Source of the DNA: an uncultured Gammaproteobacteria bacterium
GTDB taxonomy: Bacteria > Patescibacteriota > Patescibacteriia > Magasanikbacterales > JBBTXJ01
Length of the DNA stretch: 64,000 nt
Direction of reading: 5' to 3'
Assembly: GCA_964610305.1 (NCBI GenBank)
Contig: CAZSVL010000005.1
Span: 14,815-78,814 of the forward strand
Every line of letters begins with the position of its first letter. Position 1 is the first letter of the stretch. The translations under genes were made by a program, and so were the position numbers. Positions 3,082-39,761 of this stretch are shown here, piece by piece. A model generated the notes under the pieces. The model searched no databases and was not told the DNA's origin. It worked only from the letters and a program-made list of their open reading frames with translations.

Positions 3082-4119
3082 CTACAAACCAATTTTTTTC
3101 CTGGCTTTTATCATGCTCTTCTCTGCAATAAAATGAGCCTTTCTGTTTGCCAGCTTTGAGAGTACGTCTCTTTTCAGCAGACCTGCACGTTTTTTTCTGA
3201 AGTTGCCAAAGTAATCTGAAATTGAGCGTGCTGTTGTTTGTTTGAGGTCTTTGTAAGAGATGGATTGGCCAGTAAAGCGCATGTTGTCTTTTTCTGAGCC
3301 AAAGTATTCTAGTAGTTTCAGCAGGTTGTACGCTCCAGCTACTCCTTCATTTTTTCCGGCTCCTGGTTTGAGAATCCATTCCCCTTTCCATGCTACAGGG
3401 ATTTTTCCGGTGCTCTCTGTTTTGGCTTTCTTAATTTTTTCTGCAATTGTTTTTGGAGAGTCGCTTAGATTGATGACGTTTTTTTCGCCATGAGATTTAC
3501 TCATTTTTTTATGAGGAGCGGTAAGGCTCATAACACGTGGGGTAGGGGTAAGGATGGGTCTGGCCTCTGGAAAGGTCTTTCCGTATCTATTGTTAAACCA
3601 GCGCGCAATTTTTCTAGTGAGCTCTACGTGTTGTACTTGGTCTTCTCCAACAGGCACGTGCGTCCCGCCGTAGAGTAGAATATCGGCCGCCTGCAAAACA
3701 GGGTAACTAAAGAGTCCATTATTAATATTATTTTTTTGATCTAATGACTTATCTTTAAATTGAGTCATCCGTGAGAGCTCTGCAATGGGCGTAACGCAAT
3801 TAAACATCCAGCCCAGCTCTGTGTGTTGAGGCACGGCCGATTGCAAAAAGAAAACAGACTTGCGATTGTTAATGCCAAGAGCAAAAAGCTCTGCTGCCAT
3901 CATTTTTACATTTTTTTTGAGCTCCTTGCTTTCAGGCGCTTGCGTCAGCACGTGCAAATCAGCAATAAAAAAGAAGCACTCGTTTTTTGGATCATCTTGC
4001 AATTGCTTCCAGTAGCGCAGCGCACCTAAATAATTTCCGATGTGAAGCGGTCCGCTTGGCTGAATGCCAGATACAATAGTGTGTTTCATAGTAGTCTTAT
4101 TGTAATCCCATATAGACAT
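3082..4119 (-). CDS. trpS: tryptophan--tRNA ligase
   Basis: Class I HIGH motif (PSGPLHIGNYLGA) and KMSKS (HKKMSKSHG). Overall TrpRS-like layout. True start may be the internal MKHTIVSG. Confidence 0.85.
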   Translation of the reverse strand: MSIWDYNKTTMKHTIVSGIQPSGPLHIGNYLGALRYWKQLQDDPKNECFFFIADLHVLTQAPESKELKKNVKMMAAELFALGINNRKSVFFLQSAVPQHTELGWMFNCVTPIAELSRMTQFKDKSLDQKNNINNGLFSYPVLQAADILLYGGTHVPVGEDQVQHVELTRKIARWFNNRYGKTFPEARPILTPTPRVMSLTAPHKKMSKSHGEKNVINLSDSPKTIAEKIKKAKTESTGKIPVAWKGEWILKPGAGKNEGVAGAYNLLKLLEYFGSEKDNMRFTGQSISYKDLKQTTARSISDYFGNFRKKRAGLLKRDVLSKLANRKAHFIAEKSMIKARKKIGL

Positions 4120-4224
4120 TTATGCAAAAAAATGCTATGGTGGTGCTACCGCGTCGGCCGGATGCCGGCATGTTCTGGATTCATGTGTGTTTGCTGTAGC
4201 GCAAAACGCTGCAGATTATCATGC

Positions 4225-5262
4225 ATGGAAAAGGAGGAGAAATTGGCAGAGCCAACAAGAAAGCAGCTGATAGCGCTTATGCAATTGCGTTTTGCGCCAG
4301 AGAATAGATTGTCCATTGATAGATGGCTGGCATACATAGCTGGTGTTTGTGGTGGGTTGATTGAAAAAGATGGACTGCAGCGCATCCTGCAGGGCGATCA
4401 CCCCAAAATTCAGATAGACATGGAATCAGTGGGTTTGGTGCCCGACATGCGAAGGTTTCAATTTTTTTGGAATCCCGTAGTTAGCGTTGAGCCTAGCGGT
4501 AAGTATGCCAACCAAGAGATTCTCTGCAGCGCTACGTATCCAGAAAACTGGCGTATGCTTCCAGTGGCAAGGCAAGCCGAGCTTTTAAAGCAGTTTTTTG
4601 ATGAGCTTGATGTCTCGCAGGTGCAGAAGGTTGCACAGGGGATTATGGTTCCTGAGGGTTTTGACGGCCTGGCAGTAATTCCAAAATTTGCAGCTATCGC
4701 AGATTTAGCTCATGACTACACGTTTCCTCCATTCAATGTTGCAATGAAGCGCTTGATGAGAGTTTTTAGCCAAGAATTTGAGGGATTTAAGCGCGACGCT
4801 TTTGCATGGTCTCCGGGCACCGCTGGACTATATGAGCCTACGAGAGCTTTTTTGGAGGAGTTGGCTGAGAGCACGCCAGGCGATTGTCTGGTGATGCCGG
4901 TTCAAACCGGCATACTTCATAGAGGTAGAAGTGTGCAGAGAGCGAGGGTGTGCTACACAGACGATGAGTATGGATTAGACATGTTTTCTGTGGGATGCAT
5001 ATTGCTTACCCATCAGGGGCGCTTGGCAGCTGACGCGCTGCATATCATCTGTCCGGGATCATCCGTTCAAAATTCTCTTCAGAGCCGAGTTGATTGGTCG
5101 TGCAATGGTGTTTGGCAAAAATCATCTTTGGTTGAACTTGTGCGACGCTCGAATTATAAACCCGTGAAAAACAGTGGGTGTGCAACTGCGCATTATCCAT
5201 TTAAAACCGGCGAAACGCAGTCGAGCACTGTGGATGAGAGCGCAAAGCTGCTAGAATTCTAA
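4225..5262 (+). CDS. hypothetical protein; paralog of the edge gene 1..719
   Basis: ORF-track start at 4042 overlaps trpS, so the in-frame ATG at 4225 (MEKEEKLAE) was chosen. Shares EGFDGLAVIPK, TPGDCLVMPVQTG and C-terminal KLLEF with the first gene. Confidence 0.45.
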   Translation: MEKEEKLAEPTRKQLIALMQLRFAPENRLSIDRWLAYIAGVCGGLIEKDGLQRILQGDHPKIQIDMESVGLVPDMRRFQFFWNPVVSVEPSGKYANQEILCSATYPENWRMLPVARQAELLKQFFDELDVSQVQKVAQGIMVPEGFDGLAVIPKFAAIADLAHDYTFPPFNVAMKRLMRVFSQEFEGFKRDAFAWSPGTAGLYEPTRAFLEELAESTPGDCLVMPVQTGILHRGRSVQRARVCYTDDEYGLDMFSVGCILLTHQGRLAADALHIICPGSSVQNSLQSRVDWSCNGVWQKSSLVELVRRSNYKPVKNSGCATAHYPFKTGETQSSTVDESAKLLEF

Positions 5263-5658: not shown

Positions 5659-7485
5659 TTACACTTCTATCACCACCGGAAGCACCATCGGCCTCTTGCG
5701 CGTTTTTTTAAACAACATGCTGCCTACTTCGTCCCGGATTTTATTTTTGAGAATGTGAGGGTCTGTGCCCGCCTTTTTATCATGCGCTGTTGCTAGTTTT
5801 TTCACTGATCTTCTTAGGTTTTCTATGAGCTCTCTGTTTTCTTTGAGGTACACAAAGCCGCGGCTTATAATGTCTGGATTATGAATCAGCTTTCCAGATT
5901 TTGTATCAAGCGTGCAGATCACCACCACCATGCCTTCTTCTGCTAGCACTTGTCTGTCGCGCAATACAATTTGGCTTTCGTTTGATACGCCCAGGCCATC
6001 AACAAATACATAGTCTGTTACCACCTTTTTCTTGGTGAGCTCTCCGTTTCCTTTTTTATCAAACTCCATTATCTGGCCGTTGTCTGCCACATAGATGTGA
6101 TCCTTTGGCCAACCAAGACTCTCTGCCACGGATGCGTTTTCGCGTAGCAAAAAGTGATTTCCTTCAATAGGAATATAATATTTTGGCTGGAAAAGCGTAA
6201 TCATGAGTTTTAGATCTTCTTTTTTTCCATGACCGCCCGCGTGCACGTCCATCATAGAGTAGTGTATTACGCGCGCCTCTTTTCTGTAGAGCGTGTCCAT
6301 GAGTCTTTGCACAGAGCGCTCGTTTCCGGGAACCACAGAAGAAGAAAAGATTACCGTATCGGTCTTTCTAATTTTCACGCTGCGGTGATCGCCGTTTGCA
6401 ATACGCATAAGTGCCGCGCGGCTCTCGCCTTGCGCGCCGGTGCATACAATTACAATTTTATCATCATCGTAGTTATCAATTTTGTTGATAGGGATGATGG
6501 TGTCTTTTTTTATGGGCCTAATAAAGCCAAGTTCTCTGGCAATCTCTACGTTTGTTTTCATGCTGTAGCCTTCAAACGCAACTTTTTTGCCGTGGACTTC
6601 CGCCAGATCTACAATTTGTTTTACGCGCGATAGCAAAGACGCAAACGTTCCAATAATAAGTCTGCCCGGCGCTTTTTCTATGATCCTGTCCAGCGTCTCG
6701 CCAATTTCTTTTTCTGAAATCTGATGGCCGGGGCGGTTGGCGTTTGTAGAGTCTCCCATAAGCGCCAAAACACCCTCTGATCCCACCTTAGCAATTCTCT
6801 GCAGATCTGCTGGTGGTTCACCAACCGGGTGAAAATCAAATTTCCAGTCTCCGGTGTGGATTACTGTGCCGTTTGGTGTTTTTACTACAATGCCGGCAGA
6901 GTCTGGAATGTTATGGTTGATGTGAAAGAAGCTCACTTCAAAATGTCCCAACTTAAGAACGTCTGTAATTTTTGACACCTTTATTTTAAGCGGAGGAGTA
7001 TTAAAATCTGTCTGGCGTTTTTTAATGATGCCGGCAGATGTTGGCAGGGCATAAATAGTTGGGTTTCCAATGTTAGGAACGGTGTGGGGGATTGCGCCAA
7101 TGTGGTCATAGTGACCGTGCGTAATGATAACGCCACGGATATTTTTTTCTTTTCCTTTTAGATAGCTCATGTTTGGCACAATGTAATCTATGCCAGGCAT
7201 GTCTTCTTCTGGAAATTGAAGACCCATGTCTATGAGGATGATGTCATTTTTGTACTCCAAAAGAGTGCAGTTGCGTCCAACCTCTTCTAATCCGCCAAGC
7301 ACAATAACGCGTAGCTTGTCGCCGCTTGGTGGTGGGACGGCAGCGGGCGTCCGTCTCTGTGGAGCTCGCCTTTTGTTTTGTCCCTGTCTGTTGTGAGGGC
7401 GCCGCTTTTGATGCGATTTTGCGCCCGTGGTTTTTCCGGCTGGTCGTCTTTGTTGCTGACGCCGCGGAGATGATTTAGTTGTCAT
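5659..7485 (-). CDS. rnj: ribonuclease J (metallo-beta-lactamase/beta-CASP RNase)
   Basis: HxHxDH motif (VIITHGHYDHIGA) and RNase J-like domain order. About 55-aa basic N-terminal extension (PRRQQQRRPAGKTT...). Confidence 0.85.
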   Translation of the reverse strand: MTTKSSPRRQQQRRPAGKTTGAKSHQKRRPHNRQGQNKRRAPQRRTPAAVPPPSGDKLRVIVLGGLEEVGRNCTLLEYKNDIILIDMGLQFPEEDMPGIDYIVPNMSYLKGKEKNIRGVIITHGHYDHIGAIPHTVPNIGNPTIYALPTSAGIIKKRQTDFNTPPLKIKVSKITDVLKLGHFEVSFFHINHNIPDSAGIVVKTPNGTVIHTGDWKFDFHPVGEPPADLQRIAKVGSEGVLALMGDSTNANRPGHQISEKEIGETLDRIIEKAPGRLIIGTFASLLSRVKQIVDLAEVHGKKVAFEGYSMKTNVEIARELGFIRPIKKDTIIPINKIDNYDDDKIVIVCTGAQGESRAALMRIANGDHRSVKIRKTDTVIFSSSVVPGNERSVQRLMDTLYRKEARVIHYSMMDVHAGGHGKKEDLKLMITLFQPKYYIPIEGNHFLLRENASVAESLGWPKDHIYVADNGQIMEFDKKGNGELTKKKVVTDYVFVDGLGVSNESQIVLRDRQVLAEEGMVVVICTLDTKSGKLIHNPDIISRGFVYLKENRELIENLRRSVKKLATAHDKKAGTDPHILKNKIRDEVGSMLFKKTRKRPMVLPVVIEV

Positions 7486-7627
7486 ATTTGTTGCGCGATA
7501 AAATCGCGAAAGATATAAAGAAAGTTAAAGTTATTGATTATTAATTTTTAGACACCCACTAGTTTAGTTGGTGTTTTGTGTCGGGATCCTACCGCCTGCT
7601 ACGCGGCTCCAGGATGACGCTTGCGCG

Positions 7628-9562
7628 TCATTTTTTCCAGACCTGTTTGGTCTTGATATACCACTTTTCAATGGTGTTAAAACGATCAGACGGTGTCAGA
7701 ATTCTAGACACCTCTGCCCCCTTAACATTAGAAGAGCCGGCGTAGGTGTACGTTGGAGCGTACAAAAAGACGGCTGGGTATTGTTTTTGCAAAATTTCTT
7801 GAAAGGCTACATATTTAAGGCCGCGCACCGTATCGTCCGTGCTTTCTCTGGCTTGCTCTAGCAGACCATCGGCCGCGCGATTCACAAAGTTAGCCAAGTT
7901 AAGCCCAGGGTAATCTGTTTGAGAAGAGTGCCAGAAAGGAAACGGATCTGGGTCTGCGCCAATAATTTCTCCATAAAGCAGAACATCATATTGTCTTGGA
8001 CGCAAAACTTCTGCATTTACATCTCTTGGGTTTGCGGTGTGTATGCTTACTTGCACGCCCAACTCTTGCCACATGGTAGCCACTTCTTTTGCCACGGCAG
8101 CAAGTTCCTGATCATTTACGGTAGTTATGGTGATTTGCAGTGGCTCGCTATTTTTAGCGCGATAAATGGCCTGCGTCTCTGACATTTCTGAATCTATAAG
8201 TTGCTGAATTTGCTCAGCAAATGGGTCTTCCGGTTCCTGCTCTGGATTCTCTTCTCTAGTTTCTTCTGACTGCTCTTCTGTCTCTTCTGCCGCAGCAATA
8301 TCTTCTAACTCAGCTCTTATTTGTTTATCACGAAGCTCAGCATACTCTTGCGGAGAAATTTCTTTCCAGCCAGCTGCAGAGATAAGCTCTAGAGCCTTGT
8401 CATAATCTGAGCCGTTCTCATGAAAACGCTCTTCATATCCCAGAAAACCTTCTAAAATAGGGGAGTTAATTATAGCCCCTTGTCCGTCCAAAACGTCTGT
8501 TAAAATTTTCTTTTTATCTACAATAAGATCCAGTGCTTGTCTAAGGCGAACATCTGCAAGTGCCTTATGCTGTTTTGAGTTGAAAAACAGAGCGGTGTAT
8601 TGCGGTAGCTGCAGTTCTCGCAGCGCAATGTGTTTTCTCTCCAAGTCTGATTTAAATTTTTTGGGAACAAAATGCAGCCCTTCTACACGTTTGCTTCGCA
8701 AGTCTTGTACCGCAAGATCATACGTGGGATAAAAACTAAATTGAATACCGTCTAAATACGGCGCGCCGCGGTGAAATTTATCAAATCGTTCTAGGGCTAA
8801 ATGCTGCACAAGGCCAGCGTCTGTTCTGACCAGCTCAGTAAACATAAAGGGGCCGTTTCCAATAGGCTTGCTATTATAAGGAGAAAGACGCGCGTTTCGC
8901 GGTTCAATATTTGCCCAAATATGTTGCGGCACTATGCCGGCGGTTAAGCTGCCTAAAAACGGCGCAAATGGTTTTTCTAAAACAAATTGCACGGTGTTAT
9001 CTGTTGGTGCGGAAACCGTGACGCCCTGAAAACTCACACGCAGCGGGCTGGCGTAGGTTGGGTCTTGAATGCTTTGAAAAGTAAAGACTACGTCTTGGGC
9101 AGAAAGCGGCTCGCCGTCATGCCAAAAAAGGTTCTCTGCAATGGTAAACGTATACGTAGTTTTATCCGCAGAGACTTCATAACTGCTGGCAATGTCAGTG
9201 GCTAGGTTTCCTGCCTCATCGTATCGCAAAAGTCCTGAGAAAAGCAGACGCGCAATATCGGTATCAACTTCATTTGCGGCCGCGTAGAGCGGGTTTATAA
9301 ACTGCGGCGCTCCCACCACTGCCTCTCTATAGAGGCCTCCTTGCTTGGGCATTTTTTCAAAAAATCTTGTGCTGGCGCTAAAACCAAGGCCAACTATGCC
9401 TATTATAAGAACGGCAATAGTGCCCTGCAGCGCCCTTTTTTCTTTTACCGAAAGAAAACGTCCCACATACCGCAACTGAGAGAGCGACGGCCATTTTTTG
9501 GGAGTTTTAAGATGTTTTATTGTTTTTTGTAATCTAGCAAGGAAGTGACTAGTCCACTTCAT
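7628..9562 (-). CDS. ABC transporter substrate-binding protein, family 5 (OppA/DppA-like peptide/nickel binding)
   Basis: N-terminal TM/signal anchor. SBP_bac_5-like segment FWHDGEPLSAQDVVFTF. Contains an acidic low-complexity insert (EETEEQSEETREENPEQEPEDP). Confidence 0.7.
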   Translation of the reverse strand: MKWTSHFLARLQKTIKHLKTPKKWPSLSQLRYVGRFLSVKEKRALQGTIAVLIIGIVGLGFSASTRFFEKMPKQGGLYREAVVGAPQFINPLYAAANEVDTDIARLLFSGLLRYDEAGNLATDIASSYEVSADKTTYTFTIAENLFWHDGEPLSAQDVVFTFQSIQDPTYASPLRVSFQGVTVSAPTDNTVQFVLEKPFAPFLGSLTAGIVPQHIWANIEPRNARLSPYNSKPIGNGPFMFTELVRTDAGLVQHLALERFDKFHRGAPYLDGIQFSFYPTYDLAVQDLRSKRVEGLHFVPKKFKSDLERKHIALRELQLPQYTALFFNSKQHKALADVRLRQALDLIVDKKKILTDVLDGQGAIINSPILEGFLGYEERFHENGSDYDKALELISAAGWKEISPQEYAELRDKQIRAELEDIAAAEETEEQSEETREENPEQEPEDPFAEQIQQLIDSEMSETQAIYRAKNSEPLQITITTVNDQELAAVAKEVATMWQELGVQVSIHTANPRDVNAEVLRPRQYDVLLYGEIIGADPDPFPFWHSSQTDYPGLNLANFVNRAADGLLEQARESTDDTVRGLKYVAFQEILQKQYPAVFLYAPTYTYAGSSNVKGAEVSRILTPSDRFNTIEKWYIKTKQVWKK

Positions 9563-9899: not shown

Positions 9900-9986
9900 G
9901 TCATCCGCAGCTTGATTCAGGATCCAGGTAGGAATATAAGACGTACTCTATTTCTGCCCTAGATTCTGAATCAAGTTCAGAATGAC
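9900..9986. mobile_element. miniature gene-less derivative of the GIY-YIG inverted-repeat element (two repeats about 37 bp apart)
   Basis: GTCATCCGCAGCTTGATTCAGGATC (9900-9924) and GATTCTGAATCAAGTTCAGAATGAC (9962-9986). The internal GGAATATAAGACGTACTC resembles the GGATATAAGTCTCTCC that follows the repeats in the gene-carrying copies. Confidence 0.5.
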
Positions 9987-10050
9987 AAGCTGGACTACAC
10001 ACACCCTATACCCTAACCGCTACACGCTGAGGATATGCTATAATAGGTGC

Positions 10051-10812
10051 ATGTCATTTTCGGCAACCGATGGAGCCAAAAAACCGTTTTGGAAAAAGCC
10101 GTGGGGAATAGTACTCTTGGTGGTAGCAGGCATTTTTTTGATAATGCTTATTCTTTTTTCTTTGCTCACACTCTCCTTTTATAACCGGCTTTTGGCAGGA
10201 GAAGATTTATCTGAATATGCAGGAAGGAGCAGCTTTACGCAATCAGAAGCGTACGACAGAGCAGTGGAGTCAGAAGTTGCTCTTGCAGAGGTGGGCAGCA
10301 CGGATGATCCAAGTCTTGGCAATGAAAGCGCGCCCATAGAGATAGTAGAGTTTTTAGATTTTGAATGTCCTTTTTGCGCGGCGGAGTTTCCTATAATAAG
10401 AGAGATAGCCACCAAAAATCCAGAGCTCATAAGATATGTTGTAAGAGATTTTCCGCTAGAAGATCAGCATCCCGGAGCCACGCTTGCATCTGAGGCAAGC
10501 GAGTGCGCACATGAGCAAAATAGGTATTGGGCATATCATGATAAACTTTTTCAAAATCAACAGCCTTTCAGCAGAGAGGTGCTCATAGATTTAGCAGGGC
10601 AGGTGGGATTGATGGTAGATGATTTTACGCAGTGCTTGGATGAAGAGCGATATAAAACAGAGGTAATGGAAGATTTGCAGGCCGGAATAGATGCAGGCGT
10701 AGTGGGAACACCAACATTTTTTGTAAACGGATTTAAATTGCAGGGAGTAATTCCAACGGAGGCATGGGAAGAAATAGTACAACTAGCCGCTTCATTGCAG
10801 GTTTCATTGTAG
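10051..10812 (+). CDS. DsbA-like thiol:disulfide oxidoreductase, membrane-anchored
   Basis: CPFC active site (EFLDFECPFCAAEFP) and thioredoxin fold. N-terminal TM segment. Start set at ATG 10051 because the track start at 9982 lies inside the repeat element. Confidence 0.7.
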   Translation: MSFSATDGAKKPFWKKPWGIVLLVVAGIFLIMLILFSLLTLSFYNRLLAGEDLSEYAGRSSFTQSEAYDRAVESEVALAEVGSTDDPSLGNESAPIEIVEFLDFECPFCAAEFPIIREIATKNPELIRYVVRDFPLEDQHPGATLASEASECAHEQNRYWAYHDKLFQNQQPFSREVLIDLAGQVGLMVDDFTQCLDEERYKTEVMEDLQAGIDAGVVGTPTFFVNGFKLQGVIPTEAWEEIVQLAASLQVSL

Positions 10813-12896
10813 GCGCACTCTTTTTTGGGTGGGGGTTTTTTGTATTAGATGCAATGCCCACGCAAGCGGTGGGAGTAGGGGCGCATACGCTTAAAGACAT
10901 CTACAACGCCGGAAAAGGAAAAAAGCCAGAGAAAAAAGGTCCCATTTGTACTGGCGCAAATGCCGGCACACCTATGTGTACTCCTCAGTGTTGGAAAAAA
11001 GAGGACTGTAATGCAGTAAAGGGAGCAACAGGCGCAGACAGCATTTGGGAGGGTAATAAGACTACAGAGGTAATCTGCGGCCCAAAGGAGGATGGCTGGG
11101 GATTTTGTTATCCTGCGCCGGCAGATATCGCTCTTCAGGTTCCCATTGGCAGTTTGACTACGGCAAGCAATGCGGTTCAGTACGTAAAAGCTGCATACGT
11201 CTTTCTTTTGGGTATAGCAGGATTGGTTGCGGTAATAGTATTTATGCACGCCGGATTTTTGTGGCTGACTGCTGGCGGCAATGCGGCAAATATAAGCAGA
11301 GCAAAAGAATATATCCAAAACGCCAGCCTGGGAATGCTGCTGGTTTTTGGTAGCTACACCTTTTTATCAGTTATTAATCCAGATTTAGTAAATCTTAAAG
11401 TACCACGCGCGTATTTGTTTAGAAACCAAGCCTTGGATCTTCAAACGGCAAAAAATATGGAAGGGCAGTTTTGCGATACACAGAACGATGCGCTGGCATG
11501 CAAAGCAAGTTGTCAGGGTTGCGCGTGTGTGGGAATTAGAGAGAGCGGCATGAGTGTGCTTGGAAAATATGTTGCATGGGGAAGTACCGCCCTGGCAAGT
11601 GCTGGTTTGCTTGGTGGTAGCGGGATTTCTGCTTTGGCGCGCGGTGGTTGGTGGATAACTAAGAAGATAGGCAGCTTTTTTAAACACACGCACAGAGTAG
11701 TAGGTGCAACACTGGGCCCAAAGGCAAATGTTTTGTTATTTTTGGGAGAGCTGGCGGCATTAAATAGTGGAAAAGAAGCTTTTGAAGAATGGCTGGGAGG
11801 GAATCATGGCTTGCCTTTTGGAGGTGACAGGTTGGGGTTGTGCATAGCGGATAAAAATAAAAATATACCCATTGGTGGTAAATGTGTAGATGTAATTAAT
11901 TGTAAGGCAGGAGGTGGCAGCAAAGAGCTCAAATGTTTTCAAACAGATTGGATACCAAATGTAGGCGGTTTTGGATTTAAGATAGGTATTTGCTCTGATG
12001 GATCAGAAGGTTCTGCATGCGCAAATAATAATGATTGTGATACGCCCCTTATGTCTTGTGTGGATGGTCCAGATAACAGCAAATGGTGCTCAAAAGGAAC
12101 TAGTAGAAGTCAGGGAAGTCCATGCAATACAAACAATTGCCAAGACGATGCGTGTAGAAGATCGGCGCAGTGTGCGTCTGGATTGAGGTGTGCAATTGTA
12201 GAGGAGAACTGGTCTTCTTCTCTTCCTTTTGCTGATACTAACGGACACGGCTGGTGTGTTGATGGTTCCGGACCTACCGGTGCCGGAGGTTTGGCGGCGT
12301 GCACAGCAGATGGGGATTGCGACAAAACGGCAGGTGGACAACAGTTAAAATGTCTTGATGGGACTCTTGGTGGTGCACAGGGCAGTAAATCAAAAATCTG
12401 CACTTCTTTATGTGATAGTGATAAAAAATGTCAGGATATATGTCCGGAAGGAAAGACCTGTGTCTGTAGAGAAAATTCTGAGAAACGAAAAGTTTGTATG
12501 GCTCCATCAGCAAAGGTCGGGCAAGGAGAGCAGTGTGATACTAATGCATGTGAGGGCGATCTAAAGTGTACAAAATATAAAACTGATCTTGGGCGCGTAT
12601 GTACTAAAGGCGGATTAAATGATGTATGTACCATACAGAAAGAGTGTGGAGAAGGGTTATTGTGCGGCTTTAAGAGTGCTGAACAGACTGTCTGTATGGT
12701 AAAGGCGCCATTGCTGGTTCCATGTGAAAGTACCGATGAGTGCGTAGCTGTATACGGGGCAGAGTCACCTGCATTTTGTACGGAAGGAAGGATTGGACAG
12801 GTGAAAGTTTGCACACTCGGTTCCATAGGTGCGGTTTGCGCGTCTGACAATGATTGTAATGAAGGATCCTGTAAATACAATAAATGCAGCGAGTAG
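10764..12896 (+). CDS. large secreted/membrane cysteine-rich protein with a TrbC/VirB2-like pilin hairpin
   Basis: Signal or TM segment at the N-terminus. Two-TM hairpin [67 protein letters not shown] resembles T4SS pilin-like proteins. About 450 aa of Cys-rich repeats follow (C-x-DC-x-C periodicity). Exact start uncertain. Confidence 0.5.
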
Positions 12897-16333: not shown

Positions 16334-17251
16334 ATGAATATCTACGCAAATAAAAATTACTGGATGATCGGTGGTACATTTTTTGCTGCTTTATTTATAG
16401 CAATGCTTTTTTTGGTGCAGCCAGTATTGGGTAGGTTGCTACCAACAGGTTATATAGGTGGAGAGCTGGTTATGAGCGCTGCTGGCACAGAGGTGTATTT
16501 TGTAAACGTGGATGGATTTAGGTACGTATTTCCCAACGAAAGAGTATATTTTAGTTGGTATGAAAATTTTGAAAGAGTGCGGCATGTTTCAGGATACGAG
16601 CTTGCAAGTATTCCTTTAGGTGGTGTGGTGCGCTATAGGCCAGCAACAAGATTAATTAAAGTGCCTGATGATCCTAAAGTGTACGCGGTCAAAGGCGGCG
16701 GAAAAGTGGCTTGGATTACCACAGAAGAATTGGCGGTAGAGCTTTATGGAACAGATTGGAATCAGAAAATTGATGATATGAACCCGTCATTTTTTGTGGC
16801 TTATGAGGTTGCAGACCCTATCATGGAAGCCGATGATTTTCATACAGACTTCATCAGAGAAAGCACTCCTACGGTTAGCTCAGATATTGGCTGCGGCGAT
16901 TATGCAGAGAATTTAGAGACATGCTCTTCTTATAGATGTCATAGGCCGGCGCTTTTGCCGCTTGTTGCAACACCTTCATACAGTAACATAATGGGTATGG
17001 TTGGTGATGAGTGCAGGGTGGCCACCGGTGTAACTGAAACAGCAAATGCAATTTCGGTAATTTGTATGTACTCTGCAGATGATTTGCCTGCGATAGCTGA
17101 GCATCAGAGATTGGTAGACAACGCTACTTCAATTACCAGTAGAACCTCTGTCAAATTTGGGGACGATGGTGTGCAAACGGAAAGCATTACAACCATTGAC
17201 GGAGTGGAATATGAGACGCCGTGGGTAACCGCGTGCGTGGCATCAGAATAA
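16334..17251 (+). CDS. hypothetical secreted/membrane-anchored protein
   Basis: N-terminal TM/signal (MIGGTFFAALFIAMLFLVQPVLG). No recognisable catalytic motif. Confidence 0.45.
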   Translation: MNIYANKNYWMIGGTFFAALFIAMLFLVQPVLGRLLPTGYIGGELVMSAAGTEVYFVNVDGFRYVFPNERVYFSWYENFERVRHVSGYELASIPLGGVVRYRPATRLIKVPDDPKVYAVKGGGKVAWITTEELAVELYGTDWNQKIDDMNPSFFVAYEVADPIMEADDFHTDFIRESTPTVSSDIGCGDYAENLETCSSYRCHRPALLPLVATPSYSNIMGMVGDECRVATGVTETANAISVICMYSADDLPAIAEHQRLVDNATSITSRTSVKFGDDGVQTESITTIDGVEYETPWVTACVASE

Positions 17252-17729: not shown

Positions 17730-19247
17730 ATGAAGAAAAATGAAGTAGTCCCGCCAACAGAGAGCGATTTTGATGGAAAAACAGAGAGACCCAAATCTTT
17801 TCTAGAAAAATTTAGACATGAGGGTGGTGGAAAGCTCAATAAGTTGGGCCGCATGGGTGCGCTTATTGTTTTAATGAATACGATGCCTACTCTAGAAGGG
17901 CAGTCTTTTGCCATGGATCAAGAGCCGGCAAAAAAATCTGGGACTATTGAGGACACCATGAGCGGCCCCGATATGGAAGAGCTTAAGGAGCTGCGGCCAA
18001 ATAATATTACCATAGATGATCATGAAATTACGCTGGATTATTCTGATGGATCAGGTGAGGGAACGGCAGAGACGGTGGTGGACGGAGACATGATTACCTC
18101 AGATGGCGTAGCAGAGTTTGAATACGGAGGAGCAGATTATGGTAATGCAGAGTTGCAGGAGAGTGAGAGAGACAATATAAAAGATCAGCTAAGAACCGTT
18201 ATAGATGGAGCACTCGCCGATTATAGTGAATGGGGAATAGATACTGATTCTGCGGTAGATAAAGTCTCTATTGGTGGGCCGGTTAGTTCTAGTCCAGAGG
18301 GAAATATTACACAGAAGGGGCAAGATGCAAATCAGAGATTATCAGAGCAGCGCGCGGAGATAATGAATGAGGTGGCGCAGGAGCTTTTGCAAGAATATGG
18401 TTTTAGTGAAGACATGGTGAGTGTTGATTTTTATGGAGAGGGCGTCTCTGGTGATATTACGGATTTAACCGATAGGCTAGAGAATGATTTGGGATTTGAT
18501 TTTGAGGGAAGTGATGATCAGGTGCGCTTAGAGACAAATGAATTTGTTGCAGATTATCATGATGGCAATTGGGATGCTATTTTTGATAGGCTTCCTGATG
18601 ATCTAGCGGAGAGTCCTGCACAAAAAGAAGCCCTCAAGCTAAAAATTGCAGAAATTTATGATCAGGAAATAGCGGCCGAGCGGTCTGCTGATGTGCAAGT
18701 ATCGCTTGAGAGCAAAGATGTAAAAGTTATAGCGCCAGAGAACCAAATGGCTACGACAGAAGATACGCCGCCAAAAAAAGTCGTGACGTTCTTAAAAGAG
18801 TATTATGATCCTGCCAAAAGAGGGTCTAACACACCTGGTGTGAATCCGCCATCTGGACCAACGGGATACCCACCGCCAGAACCTCGTGGGCCTAAGCCTC
18901 CTGTTGAGGGCGGTGTGCCTGTCCCGGTGCCTGTCCCAGAGCAGCCAAAGGATCCAAAGATGCCAGGAAGAGGAGAAACAGGTCCGCAAGGGATTCCATC
19001 TGATCCAGAGATTCCCATAGAGCCGCCGCAAGAAGTATCTGAACCCCAAACCGATCCAGAAGACCCGCCAGAGGATCCTCCAATAAAAACCACTGATCCA
19101 CCAGAGATAACAAAATATGAGAAATTCTTGAGAAGAAAAATGCTTAAGAAGAGCCCTAAGCATTACGTTGGACCTAAGCGAGCAAGAAAGGTAATGTCAA
19201 AACACATAGGAACAAAAGGCTCGGGGGGAAGAGGAGTATTTGGCTAA
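17730..19247 (+). CDS. hypothetical acidic protein with proline-rich C-terminal region
   Basis: Low-complexity PPSGPTGYPPPEPRGPKPPVEGGVPVPVPVPEQPKDP... tail. No catalytic motifs. Confidence 0.45.
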   Translation: MKKNEVVPPTESDFDGKTERPKSFLEKFRHEGGGKLNKLGRMGALIVLMNTMPTLEGQSFAMDQEPAKKSGTIEDTMSGPDMEELKELRPNNITIDDHEITLDYSDGSGEGTAETVVDGDMITSDGVAEFEYGGADYGNAELQESERDNIKDQLRTVIDGALADYSEWGIDTDSAVDKVSIGGPVSSSPEGNITQKGQDANQRLSEQRAEIMNEVAQELLQEYGFSEDMVSVDFYGEGVSGDITDLTDRLENDLGFDFEGSDDQVRLETNEFVADYHDGNWDAIFDRLPDDLAESPAQKEALKLKIAEIYDQEIAAERSADVQVSLESKDVKVIAPENQMATTEDTPPKKVVTFLKEYYDPAKRGSNTPGVNPPSGPTGYPPPEPRGPKPPVEGGVPVPVPVPEQPKDPKMPGRGETGPQGIPSDPEIPIEPPQEVSEPQTDPEDPPEDPPIKTTDPPEITKYEKFLRRKMLKKSPKHYVGPKRARKVMSKHIGTKGSGGRGVFG

Positions 19248-20813: not shown

Positions 20814-21080
20814 ATGGCTTGCGTCTACATTTTAAGATCAGAAAGTGGAAGGTATTATGTGGGCAGTGCGATTGATGTTGATTCTCGTTTGAGACACCAT
20901 AAGGGCGGATTTACTCATTCAACTGCTCGCATGGGTAAGTTGGAGGTTGTGTTAGTGCAGCAGTATGAGACTCTGAAAGAAGCACGTTTCGTTGAAAGAA
21001 GGATAAAGAGAATGAAAAGGAAAGATTACATTGATAAGATGGTGGCCGACGGAAAAATCAAAATTAAGATGCGTGAGTAG
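20814..21080 (+). CDS. GIY-YIG nuclease family protein (about 88 aa), whose stop codon overlaps the tRNA 5' end
   Basis: VYILRSESGRYYVGSAIDVDSRLRHHKGG is a GIY-YIG motif. Track start at 20742 overlaps the pseudouridine synthase gene; ATG 20814 preferred. Final codons ATG CGT GAG TAG are the first 10 nt of the tRNA. Confidence 0.65.
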   Translation: MACVYILRSESGRYYVGSAIDVDSRLRHHKGGFTHSTARMGKLEVVLVQQYETLKEARFVERRIKRMKRKDYIDKMVADGKIKIKMRE

Positions 21081-21143
21081 CTCAACCGGCAGAGCGCGAA
21101 GCTTATACCTTCGTGGTTCCAGGTTCAAGTCCTGGCTCACGCA
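21071..21143 (+). tRNA. tRNA, anticodon UAU (Ile, AUA-decoding), 73 nt, no encoded CCA
   Basis: Manual cloverleaf: 7-bp acceptor stem GCGTGAG/CTCACGC, D-stem GCTC/GAGC, anticodon stem CGAAG/CTTCG with loop C-U-UAU-A-C, T-arm CCAGG-TTCAAGT-CCTGG, and 5-nt variable loop. All stems are Watson-Crick. Confidence 0.7.
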
Positions 21144-21195
21144 CGAGTAGCCCCGACGCCCGAAGGGGTCGGGGGGCCGACTGAAACGTCGGCCC

Positions 21196-21258
21196 TCAAC
21201 CGGCAGAGCGCGAAGCTTATACCTTCGTGGTTCCAGGTTCAAGTCCTGGCTCACGCAC
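21196..21258 (+). repeat. 63-bp perfect direct repeat of the tRNA 3' portion (D-loop to discriminator); partial pseudo-tRNA
   Basis: Identical to 21081-21143. It lacks the 5' acceptor strand and a D-stem partner. The 52-bp spacer holds two small GC hairpins. Confidence 0.8.
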
Positions 21259-26511: not shown

Positions 26512-27401
26512 GCGATGAATTTAGAGGGGAAGATTTAGCTCCGTTAGTTTCTTATTTAACAGAGTACAGAGACTGTCTTGTGTGCGGCAGTGATAACAAT
26601 GAACTGTGGGCTAGTTTTGGTGTCTATAAAGCTGTTCAATGTAGCGACTGCAGTTTTGTTTGGATGAATCCATTTTGTAACAATCGAGGACTCAGCTTTT
26701 ATTATAGAGATTACATTGGCAAAAGGCGGTTGTCTGATGGGAAGAAAATGGAGCAGCGTGCCATCCAGTATCAGGAGGATGGTCGCTTTTTGGAAAATTT
26801 TGTGAAAGAAGGAAAGCTGCTGGATGTGGGATGTAATGGTGGCTTTTTTTTGGCATCACTTTCATCGGGTTTTGATAAGCATGGGGTAGAGATAGACATG
26901 CACGCCGTCATGTATGCGCGAGAACATCATAGATTTGGCAGCCAAGTGCTTTGCGTTGATTTAATGGAGTCTCCATATGAGAATGAGAGTTTTGATGTTA
27001 TCACCATGCGCGGCACAATAGAGCACATGCCTAATCCGGCGGGCGCCATTGAGAAAATTAGCAGCTTGCTAAAACCGGGGGGGTATTATTACGTCACCGC
27101 AACCCCAAATGTAGACAGTCCGGCGGCGCGCATATATCGGGAGCAATGGACGCTTTTTCATCCCGTGCAACATATTTATCATTTCAGTCCGCGAACCCTC
27201 TCTATTTTGTGCGAGCGATTTGATCTGGAATTGATTGCGGAGAGTTTTCCGTATGAGCAGACGCCTTATGCTGATGTTCCCAATGATGTGTCTGCAATTA
27301 TTGATGCAAAACGCCTGCGCGAAGCTGGAGAATCGTTGCCCGTGAGTGGGCCGTTTTGGGGTAGTATGATGAGTCTTGTTTTCAGAAAGAAGAATTTATG
27401 A
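26508..27401 (+). CDS. class I SAM-dependent methyltransferase with N-terminal CxxC...CxxC zinc ribbon
   Basis: Motif I LLDVGCNGGFF and LKPGGYYYV. N-terminal CLVCGS...CSDCSF. Confidence 0.65.
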   Translation: MSDEFRGEDLAPLVSYLTEYRDCLVCGSDNNELWASFGVYKAVQCSDCSFVWMNPFCNNRGLSFYYRDYIGKRRLSDGKKMEQRAIQYQEDGRFLENFVKEGKLLDVGCNGGFFLASLSSGFDKHGVEIDMHAVMYAREHHRFGSQVLCVDLMESPYENESFDVITMRGTIEHMPNPAGAIEKISSLLKPGGYYYVTATPNVDSPAARIYREQWTLFHPVQHIYHFSPRTLSILCERFDLELIAESFPYEQTPYADVPNDVSAIIDAKRLREAGESLPVSGPFWGSMMSLVFRKKNL

Positions 27402-29077
27402 CAATGCGGGAGTACAACCGGAGTTCATCACCGCGAATACTCGGTGTTATTTTAGCGCGCGGCGGATCTAAGGGTGTGCCACGAAAAAATATCAAGCCAC
27501 TTTTGGGCAAGCCTCTTATAGCATATACCATTGAGGAAGGTCTCAAATCCACTCACCTTACTGATTTGATCGTCTCTACTGAAGATAAGGAAATATCAGA
27601 CGTTGCAAAACAATGTGGCGCGCGCGTTCCTTTTGTTCGCCCTGATCATTTGGCAACAGACAACGCAACATCAAAAGCATGCTTGCAACACGCGGTTACA
27701 GAAATGGAAAAAATTACTGGCGAAAAATATGATTACATAATTGAGTTGATGTGCACCAATCCGCTTAAGAGTGTCCAGGACATTGATGCCATAATAGAGA
27801 AGCTGATTGAGACGCGGGCGGATTCCGTAATTGGTGTTGTCCAGCTTGACGACCATCATCCGGCAAGGATCAAAAAAATTGTGGATGATAGAATAGTGGA
27901 TTTTTGTATCCCGGAGCCAAACGGAGCGCGCAGGCAAGATCTAAAACCAGAGGCATACATTAGAAACGGCAGTATTTATGCCATGAAGCGTGATGTGCTC
28001 ATGATTCAAGACCGGCGGTATGGCACGCCAGATTCCAGGCCATACATTTTTCCTCCAGAGCGCTCCGTAAATATAGATAATAAAATAGATTGGGATATGG
28101 TGGAGCGCCGTATGTCAGAAGGAGCTGGTCAGAAGATACTATGCGCAACACCCATAAAGCATTTGAAAGGGGTATATGAATTGTTAGAGCAAGCTGGCCC
28201 AGTTTTGTACCACCCCTATATAAAAAAAGAGGAACTGACATCTTTGCTAAAGAGTGATCAAAGCATAACGGCACTTTTTGTAAATCCAAATAAAATGGGT
28301 TTTGTACTGGATCGGTCTGTGCTTAGCAATACGGGTGTAAAAGTCATCAATACCGCCTCAACCGGGCTCAATCATATTGCAGTAGAGCAAGTGCGGGAAC
28401 TGGGGATAGACATTCTATCTCTTACTGAAGATCGTCACATTATTGAACAGCTACCCTCTACCAGCGAGCTAGCTTTTGGTTTGATGTTGTCTCTGCTTCG
28501 TCCCATTGGGCCGTCTTTTGATTCTGTTAAATCAGGAAAGTGGGACTACGAGCCGTTTATGGGTCATCAGGTTCGTGGGTTAACCCTTGGGGTAATTGGA
28601 TACGGAAGATTGGGCAGTCTTATGGCTGAATACGGAAAAGCATTTGGTATGCGTGTGCTCGTTTATGATCCTCTTAAAAAAATTGATGGAGTTGAGCAAG
28701 TGGCGCTGAGTGTTTTGCTTGAAAACTCAGACGCGGTGTCTTTGCATGTTCATGTGAGCGATCAGACCAGAGGCATGATAAGCGCTTCTGCCATCAGGAC
28801 TATGAAAAAAGGTGCTGTTTTAATTAACACCTCCAGAGGTGAGATTGTGGACGAGCATGCTCTAACAGACGCTTTGCGGTCTGGACACCTAGGCGGTTAT
28901 GGTACTGATGTTTTGGCTGATGAGTTTGAAGACATAGAAAAAAGTCCACTTTTGACAGCTGCCAGAGACGGTTTGCCGGTGATTGTTACGCCACACATAG
29001 GAGGAATGACGTGGGAAGGTCAACAGCTTGCCTTTTCTCATGCTGCTAGAAAGTTTTTGAATAAGGAAAACGTATGA
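27398..29077 (+). CDS. bifunctional: N-terminal CMP-nonulosonate cytidylyltransferase (NeuA-like) fused to C-terminal D-isomer-specific 2-hydroxyacid dehydrogenase NAD-binding domain
   Basis: N-terminal GVILARGGSKGVPRKNIKPLLGKPLIAYTI is a CTP_transf_3 signature. C-terminal GVIGYGRLGSLMAEYGKAFGMRVLVYD Rossmann plus LINTSRGEIVDEHAL...HIGG is typical of 2-Hacid_dh. Confidence 0.7.
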   Translation: MTMREYNRSSSPRILGVILARGGSKGVPRKNIKPLLGKPLIAYTIEEGLKSTHLTDLIVSTEDKEISDVAKQCGARVPFVRPDHLATDNATSKACLQHAVTEMEKITGEKYDYIIELMCTNPLKSVQDIDAIIEKLIETRADSVIGVVQLDDHHPARIKKIVDDRIVDFCIPEPNGARRQDLKPEAYIRNGSIYAMKRDVLMIQDRRYGTPDSRPYIFPPERSVNIDNKIDWDMVERRMSEGAGQKILCATPIKHLKGVYELLEQAGPVLYHPYIKKEELTSLLKSDQSITALFVNPNKMGFVLDRSVLSNTGVKVINTASTGLNHIAVEQVRELGIDILSLTEDRHIIEQLPSTSELAFGLMLSLLRPIGPSFDSVKSGKWDYEPFMGHQVRGLTLGVIGYGRLGSLMAEYGKAFGMRVLVYDPLKKIDGVEQVALSVLLENSDAVSLHVHVSDQTRGMISASAIRTMKKGAVLINTSRGEIVDEHALTDALRSGHLGGYGTDVLADEFEDIEKSPLLTAARDGLPVIVTPHIGGMTWEGQQLAFSHAARKFLNKENV

Positions 29078-38984: not shown

Positions 38985-39761
38985 ATGAGAGCATATAATT
39001 CTGGCTTTGTTGACTATAACCCGCAAGGGCTAGTTTTAGAAATTGCTTCAGGGCTGAATCCCACCTTTGAGGCAGATGTATTACTGGAAGCAGACAGATC
39101 ATTTATAGAGCCCTTAACCAAACGAGGTTATGCCGCACTATACGGTGACGCACTGAATCTTCCTTTTAAAGACAAGAGTTTTGATTATATTAGCTGTTTG
39201 CATTTGGCGGAGCATTTTGAGAAGCATGAGTTGGTTCAGTTTTTTTCAGAGCTGCAGCGCGTGGCGTCAAGAGGGTATCTAGAGGTTCCCTCAATTTACT
39301 GGGAACTGATGGCCAACTGTGATGCGCCGCTGGTTGGAGAAGGGACTATAGATGGGCATCATAAACAATTGTGTTTTCTGCACGACGGCGTGCTGCACAT
39401 GATAAGGAAATCTGATGAGAAAAATCCAGAGCATCAGCTACTCAGAGCTCTTTTCTTTAATGCTATCAACGCTGACGCTACGGCGGAAAATATTGAGATA
39501 ATGATGATAGGATTTCAGTGGGAAGGGGAGATTAAGGTAGAGTTTCATGAATCTCTTGCGGCAGTTCCTGAATATTTGAGCAGAGCAATGGTCTATCGGT
39601 TAAAAAAATATGGCGAGAGTAAAAAAAGTAAGACACCGCTGGCGCGGATGATTCACGGATATCTAAAGGCGCTTAAGGATAAAAAAAGAAAGAGAGAAAA
39701 ATCGGACAAGCAACGGTTAAAAGGGCGTAAACAATTTAATATAGAAGATCTTTGCAGGTGA
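38985..39761 (+). CDS. class I SAM-dependent methyltransferase-like protein with Lys-rich C-terminus
   Basis: LVLEIASGLNP motif I-like; GDALNLPFKDKSFDYISCLHLAEHF is a Methyltransf_11 pattern. Confidence 0.5.
   Translation: MRAYNSGFVDYNPQGLVLEIASGLNPTFEADVLLEADRSFIEPLTKRGYAALYGDALNLPFKDKSFDYISCLHLAEHFEKHELVQFFSELQRVASRGYLEVPSIYWELMANCDAPLVGEGTIDGHHKQLCFLHDGVLHMIRKSDEKNPEHQLLRALFFNAINADATAENIEIMMIGFQWEGEIKVEFHESLAAVPEYLSRAMVYRLKKYGESKKSKTPLARMIHGYLKALKDKKRKREKSDKQRLKGRKQFNIEDLCR

Follow-up and report, generated by a model that had tools for sequence, protein, structure and literature searches.

The 64-kb window analysed here, which is the whole stretch of 64,000 nucleotides taken from contig CAZSVL010000005.1, encodes at 10764..12896 on the plus strand a 710-residue protein that we interpret as an exported, disulfide-rich protein of what is probably a Patescibacteria (Candidate Phyla Radiation, CPR) bacterium, anchored in the membrane by a hairpin of two helices. 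The hairpin is homologous to the VirB2-like family PF18895, the 52 cysteines of the protein form a framework that is conserved in distant homologues, the gene is linked to that of a DsbA-like oxidoreductase in a syntenic block, and it evolves fast. These features suggest that the protein is probably a rapidly diversifying surface protein that is held by its hairpin and matured by the DsbA-like enzyme. All parts of the protein and of its DsbA-like neighbour described below are encoded on the plus strand.

Results

A predicted exported protein with cysteine-rich parts on both sides of a hairpin

The open reading frame (ORF) was found exactly where a preliminary description of this DNA had placed a 710-residue protein, and its translation is an exact match to entry P0001 of the protein collection. 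The 52 cysteines make up 7.3% of the residues and are unevenly distributed: six lie in residues 62-115, none in 131-215, five in 237-255, one at residue 360 and 40 in residues 374-708. Hydropathy analysis gave a signal- or anchor-type segment at residues 8-33 and hydrophobic helices at residues 137-173 and 186-205. This agrees with the N-terminal signal or anchor and the two-helix hydrophobic hairpin that had been described previously; the hairpin sequence quoted at that time lies within these helices, and AlphaFold2 modelling leads to the same assignment. The anatomy presented here is based on an alignment of 20 homologues (25-56% identity) and on two AlphaFold2 models, one of the full-length protein (predicted local distance difference test, pLDDT, of 59) and one of residues 60-265 built with 42 sequences (pLDDT 84.5, predicted template modelling score 0.61).

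The first 40 residues (10764..10883), with a hydrophobic core at residues 10-28, are assigned by hydropathy to a signal peptide. Among the 20 homologues, P32 and A40 show at least 90% conservation at the position of a P..VFAQ motif, which suggests cleavage after V38-G39-A40. An N-terminal ectodomain (residues 41-135; 10884..11168) follows, which according to AlphaFold2 and the alignment is a small alpha/beta domain with six cysteines. It is characterized by the family core CW..C...C...GxCY and a terminal beta-hairpin with the sequence LQVPIG, and it was modelled with a pLDDT of 85-95. C76/W77, C82, C105 and C115 are conserved in the homologue alignments, and all six cysteines are kept in P0002, a homologue of 54% identity.

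The cysteine-free helix-loop-helix hairpin (residues 136-215; 11169..11408) was delimited by its PF18895 match, by the family link described below and by AlphaFold2. Its transmembrane helices extend over residues ~141-169 and ~187-205, the second one being followed by an INPDLV..L.VP motif, and the corresponding helices of the model (residues 137-169 and 174-204) have a pLDDT of ~90. The loop carries the basic residues R179 and K181, so that hydropathy and AlphaFold2 together describe a layout of signal peptide, two membrane helices and short basic loop. Directly behind the hairpin, the alignment defines a juxtamembrane cysteine cluster (residues 216-262; 11409..11549) composed of C237, C246, C250, C253 and C255. 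All five are present in P0002. C237, C246 and C255 are invariant across the 20 homologues, and C250 and C253, which form a CxxC motif, are absent from several of them, e.g. from P0023 and P0099.

Composition and alignment further distinguish a variable, cysteine-free segment (residues 263-355; 11550..11828), which consists to 42% of glycine, alanine, serine and threonine and in which a basic patch is flanked by two stretches of moderate hydrophobicity. It was modelled with a pLDDT below 50. The segment is free of cysteines in 11 of the 20 homologues, the remainder holding one to three. Since invariant cysteines, C255 and C360, lie on either side of it, it may represent a long insertion within the first cysteine module. 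A degenerate second pilin hairpin was considered for this segment and rejected, as neither hmmsearch nor hhalign revealed a relation at the sequence level. The remainder of the protein (residues 356-710; 11829..12893) is a tail with 41 cysteines, for which the module layout and profile self-matches indicate about nine modules of four cysteines each.

The hairpin is homologous to PF18895 and shared by a large family

With a profile built from P0001 and P0002, 1.84 billion cluster representatives were searched exhaustively by HMMER. The profile matched 16,499 of them at E≤1e-3, of which 2,790 reached E≤1e-10. The matches mostly span profile positions ~65-230, corresponding to the N-terminal domain and the hairpin, and the 150 listed representatives match the profile with E-values from 1e-20 to 1e-97. 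PF18895 was detected (E≤1e-3) in 89 of the 90 top relatives, with a best E-value of 1e-27, and nine of the 90 also matched the TrbC/VirB2 family PF04956 (best E-value 7e-8). The search linked the hairpin to its relatives with E-values of 1e-20 to 1e-42. At the level of sequence profiles, this is independent and non-circular evidence that places the hairpin in the PF18895 superfamily. Near-invariant hairpin positions among 90-100 relatives are Y145, G164, G172, A180, I184, G190, S197, L201, N205 and P206. Alignment of the hairpin with VirB2 of A. tumefaciens (PDB 8cue) by hhalign was co-linear over both helices and weak (probability 14%, E-value 0.002). One homologue, P0015, is named 'MAG: pilin [Patescibacteria group bacterium]' at NCBI.

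The layout of a cysteine-containing domain, a hairpin and a long cysteine-rich tail is common in this family. The 151 listed representatives have a median length of 492 residues and a median of 18 cysteines, with at least 10 cysteines in 140 and an even cysteine count in 125 of them. In the 139 single-hairpin proteins among them, cysteine makes up 5.8% of the residues before the hairpin, 0.03% inside it (4 of 13,072 residues) and 5.6% after it. Their tails have a median length of 303 residues and a median of 12 cysteines; 125 of the 139 have tails of at least 200 residues, and 122 of these 125 tails contain at least eight cysteines. With its 52 cysteines the protein studied here is found, together with P0002, at the high end of the family. 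The C-x3-5-[DNE]C motif is typical of its subgroup only, the tails varying between subgroups.

Some relatives carry enzymatic domains: among the top 90, an SLT lytic transglycosylase domain was found in six and a Peptidase_C39_2 domain in one. Thus, the hairpin module carries diverse extracytoplasmic cargo. As a separate observation, P0006, P0007, P0009, P0018 and P0030 contain three to four tandem PF18895 hairpins and few cysteines. In four of these (P0007, P0009, P0018 and P0030) a local motif search located the SLT motif after the tandem hairpins, so that a VirB2-like and a VirB1-like module are fused.

Other searches returned few sequences. A word-indexed homologue search with the full protein retrieved the protein itself and P0002, and with the 20-sequence alignment additionally P0152 alone; with the N-terminal half it gave no match, the search being swamped by low-complexity words. 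Two scans of GTDB genome contigs, one with the single protein and one with a 4-sequence alignment, found no relative, and a metagenome scan found one locus almost identical to contig L004 of our homologue set. The L19, UvrA and RNase J proteins of the window had no exact counterpart in the collection, probably on account of start-codon choice. NCBIfam did not provide an assignment for the protein, and PHROGs and PADLOC indicated no phage or defence family.

A DsbA-like gene overlaps the hairpin gene in a conserved housekeeping block

The gene immediately upstream, stated in the preliminary description to be DsbA-like, is an ORF at 9982..10812 that was assigned to a DsbA/MdbA-like thiol-disulfide oxidoreductase with an N-terminal membrane anchor on the basis of Pfam, PDB relatives and motifs. 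It scored 93.8 bits against Thioredoxin_4 (cut-off 23.2) and 74.5 bits against DSBA, above the cut-offs of both. The translation contains a CPFC active site, a GTPT cis-Pro loop and an N-terminal transmembrane segment, and the closest PDB relatives are BdbD, ScsC and DsbA, including actinobacterial DsbA. The protein thus combines a thioredoxin fold carrying the DsbA insertion, a CxxC motif, a cis-Pro loop and a predicted extracytoplasmic location, as is characteristic of DsbA. Its true start may be the internal methionine at residue 24. The 3' end of the dsbA-like gene overlaps the start of the hairpin gene by 49 nt (10764..10812), as seen from the ORF coordinates and the sequence, and a GGAGG sequence is located at 10758-10762, directly 5' of the ATG of the hairpin gene. 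Overlaps of 43 nt and 46 nt were observed in the related contigs L001 and L003, respectively.

A dsbA-like gene is located directly upstream of the orthologue in L001, L003, L004, L006/7 and L009. In L008, which encodes P0010, the tight pairing is broken at 6321-7945 by three small genes, for POR, PFOR_II and a 23S_rRNA_IVP family protein, that lie between dsbA and the hairpin gene. The gene order tRNA synthetase, RNase J, SBP_bac_5, SecG, DsbA, hairpin protein, UvrA and L19 is kept as far as the contigs reach, and this synteny holds for P0002 (54% identity), P0003 (37%), P0004 (35%), P0015 (28%) and P0010 (~24%), the contig of P0010 stopping at the hairpin gene. A different setting was observed in L005 (4074-8699). 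The protein encoded there, P0005, shares the first cysteine modules and has no DsbA neighbour. Its gene, like the three unannotated ones around it, is located between clpB and radA/recG.

Meheust et al. (10.1101/335083) described a CPR-enriched family of MdbA-like oxidoreductases (3.6k.fam00998), in which VKOR is the commonest neighbour and for which type IV pilins were proposed as substrates. In contrast to that picture, the neighbour of the oxidoreductase in our window is a 52-cysteine PF18895 protein, and the two genes overlap. The arrangement resembles Gram-positive MdbA/BdbD systems, such as MdbA of Actinomyces with its FimA pilin, in that the gene for a tethered, CxxC-bearing DsbA-like enzyme adjoins one for an exported surface protein that contains cysteines.

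The constant adjacency to dsbA in L001, L003, L004 and L006/7, with three genes between in L008, could also be read in the opposite direction, with the hairpin protein re-oxidising DsbA through C237, C246, C250-x2-C253, C255 and C360 in place of DsbB or VKOR. A CxxC motif close to the membrane within a partly invariant cluster would suit this role, and neither a DsbB nor a VKOR family was detected among the 34 window ORFs scanned (the window has 52 ORFs of at least 150 residues). Nevertheless, we consider such a redox partnership highly improbable. C250 and C253 are missing in several homologues, the protein has no similarity to DsbB or VKOR, and most of its cysteines reside in repeated, fast-evolving modules that are typical of structural disulfides. 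Moreover, VKOR being the usual oxidoreductase neighbour in CPR genomes (10.1101/335083), a separate re-oxidant exists in the group.

The tail is composed of four-cysteine modules on a conserved cysteine framework

The modules of the tail conform to the pattern G-x2-C-x4-5-[DNE]C-x4-11-C-x9-20-C. About nine were recognized by eye, and five are related by profile: a profile of module 2 matched residues 442-476, 512-534, 611-634 and 678-708 of the same protein, and a profile of module 4 matched module 2 with an E-value of 2e-5. Judged from these matches, the repeats are real and weakly conserved. In homologues of 25-37% identity, C237, C246, C255, C360, C374, C380, C391, C410, C419, C425, C432, C454, C498 and C628 are invariant, and a cysteine pattern maintained at such a level of divergence is not due to chance. 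Residues 360-480 were modelled by AlphaFold2 as short beta-strands with a pLDDT of 55-83, and the last third of the tail (residues 579-710) is hypervariable.

These results modify the view of the tail given in the preliminary description. The cysteine repeats themselves are real, but they cover ~350 residues (360-710) rather than ~450, residues 256-359 being free of cysteines. Likewise, the dozens of cysteines in repeating units are present as described, but the actual unit is the four-cysteine module defined above and not C-x(n)-DC-x(n)-C. The spacing of the cysteines proved to be conserved among homologues, on which the earlier interpretation had depended. The proposal of EGF-like modules did not hold. 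No EGF, TNFR or other cysteine-repeat family of Pfam was matched at E≤10, either by the whole protein or by the tail alone, and the modules have four cysteines, not six, so that an EGF or TNFR repeat identity was ruled out. With EGF and TNFR repeats the modules share the organization as tandem, small, disulfide-bonded extracellular units, and they differ from them in cysteine number and spacing.

Among known folds, the modules are most reminiscent of cysteine-rich mini-proteins. The local pattern (E/D)GS.C....DC..G..C......(K).C is similar to the Dickkopf/colipase type and matches, as aligned, the DKK1 stretch EGSVCLRSSDCASGLCC, and the C-x5-C-x5-C-x6-C spacing of the Ascaris carboxypeptidase A inhibitor is comparable (PDB entries 3s2k, 5o57 and 3fju). 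None of these resemblances is significant, with E-values of 0.2-0.8 (best 0.21) for the Dickkopf cysteine-rich domain, 0.15 for the Ascaris inhibitor and 0.37 for the N-terminal region of Dkk4 as found by Foldseek. In contrast to Dickkopf proteins, the tail lacks a CC doublet, does not follow the 10-cysteine pattern and consists of about nine tandem modules on a membrane protein. From the sequence comparison, convergence appears as likely as homology.

The protein evolves rapidly around its cysteines

Rates of change were determined by comparison of the window with its closest contig, L001, using nonsynonymous substitutions per site (dN) according to Nei-Gojobori. Protein identity between the two amounts to 98% for UvrA, 95% for RNase J, 93% for SecG, 86-87% for SBP_bac_5, 70-72% for DsbA and 54-56% for the hairpin protein. 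Concordantly, dN is 0.026-0.096 in four neighbouring genes, 0.21 in dsbA and 0.39 in the hairpin gene, whose amino-acid change thus exceeds that of the adjoining conserved cytoplasmic genes more than 10-fold and that of the extracytoplasmic SBP_bac_5 about 4-fold. Within the gene, dN is lowest in the hairpin (0.13), ranges from 0.33 to 0.89 in the tail and reaches the latter value in the last four modules. Despite these differences, 47 of the 52 cysteines are kept between the two proteins, i.e. all 36 up to residue 578 and 11 of 16 thereafter. A fixed cysteine scaffold with fast-changing loops would be expected where a binding surface is exposed.

Fast change is also seen in the DsbA-like gene. 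Between window 9982-10812 and L001 9255-10043 its dN is 0.21, against ~0.03 for UvrA and RNase J. This may reflect co-adaptation with the hypervariable neighbouring protein.

Fast evolution would also fit an effector. In this alternative, the hairpin would serve as a temporary export anchor and the tail would be cut off after the NP.LV.L.LP motif and released as a disulfide-knotted effector, for instance a protease inhibitor or a toxin directed against a host bacterium. The motif behind the second helix is nearly invariant, and the non-significant resemblances of the modules all point to secreted mini-proteins, namely the Ascaris inhibitor, Dickkopf and Dkk4. However, these outside similarities fall short of significance, a protease gene is not linked to the locus, and the conservation of the hairpin is shared by the N-terminal cysteine domain and by the cluster behind it, suggesting that the three form one assembled membrane-proximal unit. 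Furthermore, C-terminal processing of the TrbC type takes off short peptides and not domains of 500 residues. We therefore judge release of the tail to be quite improbable.

The hairpin more likely acts as an anchor than as a pilus subunit

Considering these data, we propose that the protein is probably a hairpin-anchored, DsbA-matured and rapidly diversifying surface protein. The cleavable signal peptide would direct export through Sec. The hairpin would sit in the cytoplasmic membrane and expose its short basic loop (R179, K181) to the cytoplasm, a topology predicted from hydropathy only. With the loop on that side, both the N-terminal six-cysteine domain and the C-terminal part of 500 residues would be located outside the cell, which is consistent with the surface display suggested in the preliminary description. 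The membrane-tethered DsbA/MdbA-like enzyme, probably produced by translational coupling, would then introduce up to 26 disulfides, so that the tail would become a string of small and rigid four-cysteine modules. Their variable loops may contact an outside partner, such as a host cell or a phage.

Several observations weigh against this interpretation. The protein itself scored 20.0 bits (E-value 7e-4) with the PF18895 model T4SS_pilin, under the gathering cut-off of 26.6, the alignment covering residues 143-202 and model positions 11-69 of 71; P0002 scored 24.6 bits. As regards the resemblance to a pilin-like domain widespread in CPR that had been noted initially, the protein's own match to the pilin family of type IV secretion systems (T4SS) was below threshold, and the family profile, with 89 of 90 relatives positive, supported the resemblance. 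A PDB profile search with the N-terminal domain and the hairpin retrieved nothing at E≤10, solved pilins included, and Foldseek retrieved no significant pilin fold and generic hairpins only; the A. pernix conjugation pilus 8dfu was matched with a TMt of 0.60 and an E-value of 3.9. Neither outcome is surprising, given how generic the shape of a helical hairpin is, and the designation 'VirB2-like' accordingly derives solely from profile homology. Residues 263-355 could moreover cross the membrane, and an odd number of crossings would place the tail in the cytoplasm, against which its 41 cysteines argue. Finally, synonymous substitutions per site (dS) are saturated (0.8-3.2) and the overall dN/dS is 0.15, so that positive selection is not demonstrable and the dN contrasts alone are usable.

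The same hairpin raises the question of a pilus. The protein may be a component of a T4SS-type pilus, with a VirB4-type machine encoded elsewhere extracting the hairpin from the membrane and polymerising it in the manner of VirB2/TraA, and with the protein being either a rare tip or minor subunit that bears an adhesive cysteine-rich rod, or the subunit of a decorated pilus whose rods point outwards. The homology of the hairpin to PF18895, extending in nine of 90 relatives to the TrbC family PF04956, is in line with this idea. So is the conservation of the hairpin, the highest within the protein: its low dN and the near-invariant G172, A180, I184, N205 and P206 indicate a constraint beyond the need of a plain anchor. 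Both pilin termini lie on the outer surface of solved VirB2/TraA pili such as the F-pilus, so that N- and C-terminal additions would be geometrically possible. Further, VirB2-like genes are widespread in Patescibacteria, and a pilin array is essential in Southlakia (10.1101/2025.01.22.634366; PMC10633639). P0005, which has the same first modules, is encoded beside radA and recG, and both of these have been reported, in a paper on the CPR T4SS, to co-localise with CPR T4SS clusters.

The genomic context points in the other direction. The 34 scanned window ORFs contain no T4SS gene, and the precomputed annotation of the syntenic contigs L001, L003, L004, L006/7 and L008 contains no T4SS Pfam family. 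A local hidden Markov model search found no second hairpin gene in the 64-kb window, where the gene is thus present as a single copy rather than as an array. With 710 residues, ~95 of them before and ~495 after the hairpin, the protein is outside the size of small pilins (~70-130 residues when mature) and five to seven times as large as known ones. A VirB2-type helix would hardly accommodate an ectodomain of ~55 kDa per subunit, except with a rare subunit or a rod-like tail, and in the literature no pilus of a PF18895 protein has been demonstrated in any organism. We therefore regard a pilus component as somewhat unlikely, and the filament-tip role that the preliminary description had named as one option is weakened. 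A role of the hairpin as membrane anchor rather than as polymerising pilus subunit is more likely, because the gene is single, lies in a housekeeping locus, has no T4SS neighbours among the genes examined and encodes so large an ectodomain, and also because relatives carry other ectodomains (SLT, Peptidase_C39_2) on the same hairpin.

Other features of the window

The surroundings of the gene consist of housekeeping genes and a nonulosonic-acid/polysaccharide cluster. A scan of the region for promoters and terminators gave results no better than those for shuffled sequence. Just downstream of uvrA, two further predicted exported proteins are encoded, both lacking a family assignment. The first (16334-17251) is a signal-anchored protein of 305 residues with seven cysteines, and the second (17730-19247) has 505 residues, an acidic middle part, a proline-rich C-terminal half and a faint OmpA-like match (E-value 0.11). 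A tRNA-Ile with the unusual anticodon TAT is located at 21071-21144, and 40 nt downstream of it (21186-21257) a tRNA-like match was reported by Rfam alone, at 30.5 bits with a threshold of 29, and missed by ARAGORN.

From ~22000 to 43600 on the plus strand extends a long same-strand surface-sugar cluster. Its genes apparently specify a nonulosonic-acid pathway, a noteworthy feature in a reduced genome. The cluster comprises genes for an ABC2/Wzt exporter, a glycosyltransferase, NeuB, two DegT aminotransferases, a C-methyltransferase and epimerases, and at 27398-29077 a cytidylyltransferase fused to a 2-hydroxyacid dehydrogenase domain. Large ORFs of 343-933 residues for which no Pfam match was obtained at E≤1e-3 are located at 4042-5262, 37117-38955, 39752-42553, 48432-50632 and 59473-61326, two of them within the sugar cluster. 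The GC skew is positive in all 2-kb bins, the cumulative skew rises steadily and most genes are on the plus strand; the window is therefore part of a single replichore and shows strong strand asymmetry.

Discussion

The PF18895 'pilins' of Patescibacteria have been described by Quinonero-Coronel et al. 2025 (10.1101/2025.01.22.634366) and Wang et al. 2023 (PMC10633639). In the literature, the family is reported to be typical of freshwater Patescibacteria, and its described VirB2-like members are small proteins encoded in arrays of 2-11 genes, mostly near virB4. The protein described here shares with them the signal peptide and a hairpin with GG..Y.T(A/S)GGN....I..AK..I..A..GL motifs. It differs from them in its length of 710 residues, its cysteine-bonded N-terminal domain, its tail of 500 residues, its occurrence as a single copy in a housekeeping block behind dsbA and its sub-threshold score. 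With the TrbC/VirB2/TraA pilins (PF04956; 8cue/8exh) it has in common the predicted topology and a co-linear, weak alignment to VirB2. Unlike these, it gives no significant match to a solved pilin, has no sign of cyclisation or of short C-terminal processing, belongs to a monoderm lineage and bears very large ectodomains. The novel CPR pilus of a 2026 preprint was also considered; its Pam pilins are Ig-like donor-strand-exchange pilins and are unrelated to our protein.

Thus, the PF18895 hairpin family in the form of small pilin arrays near virB4 and the CPR-enriched family of MdbA-like oxidoreductases are already known. In the searchable literature we did not find a description of large cysteine-rich PF18895 members, of a fixed pairing with dsbA at a housekeeping locus or of fast evolution on a fixed cysteine scaffold.

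Patescibacteria, whose contribution to bacterial diversity may be large, live attached to other microbial cells by a contact mechanism that is poorly understood. VirB2-like genes are essential in the single Patescibacteria species tested, though what their proteins build is obscure. Our data reveal a very large set of VirB2-like proteins that are not small pilins, with at least 2,790 representatives at E≤1e-10 and tails of at least 200 residues in 125 of the 139 single-hairpin proteins among the 151 representatives listed. Such hairpin proteins comprise 400-700 residues, with disulfide-rich ectodomains on both sides of the hairpin. With the protein encoded in our window, the CPR-enriched oxidoreductase family gains a concrete candidate substrate. 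The same protein is also a candidate host- or phage-contact protein, which can be tested in cultivable Saccharibacteria.

A more far-reaching reading, which we consider unlikely as a whole, would be that the VirB2-type hairpin is a general carrier for surface display in Patescibacteria, a conserved module of the membrane or the pilus base that presents fast-evolving disulfide-knotted rods or enzymes such as lytic transglycosylases, possibly building decorated pili on a single-membrane cell. As part of this reading, at least one lineage would have a dedicated, co-evolving DsbA, the gene of which overlaps that of its partner at a fixed housekeeping locus. In its boldest form, the essential CPR T4SS would extract these proteins from the membrane, and the decorated pili so formed would be the contact organ for the host bacterium.

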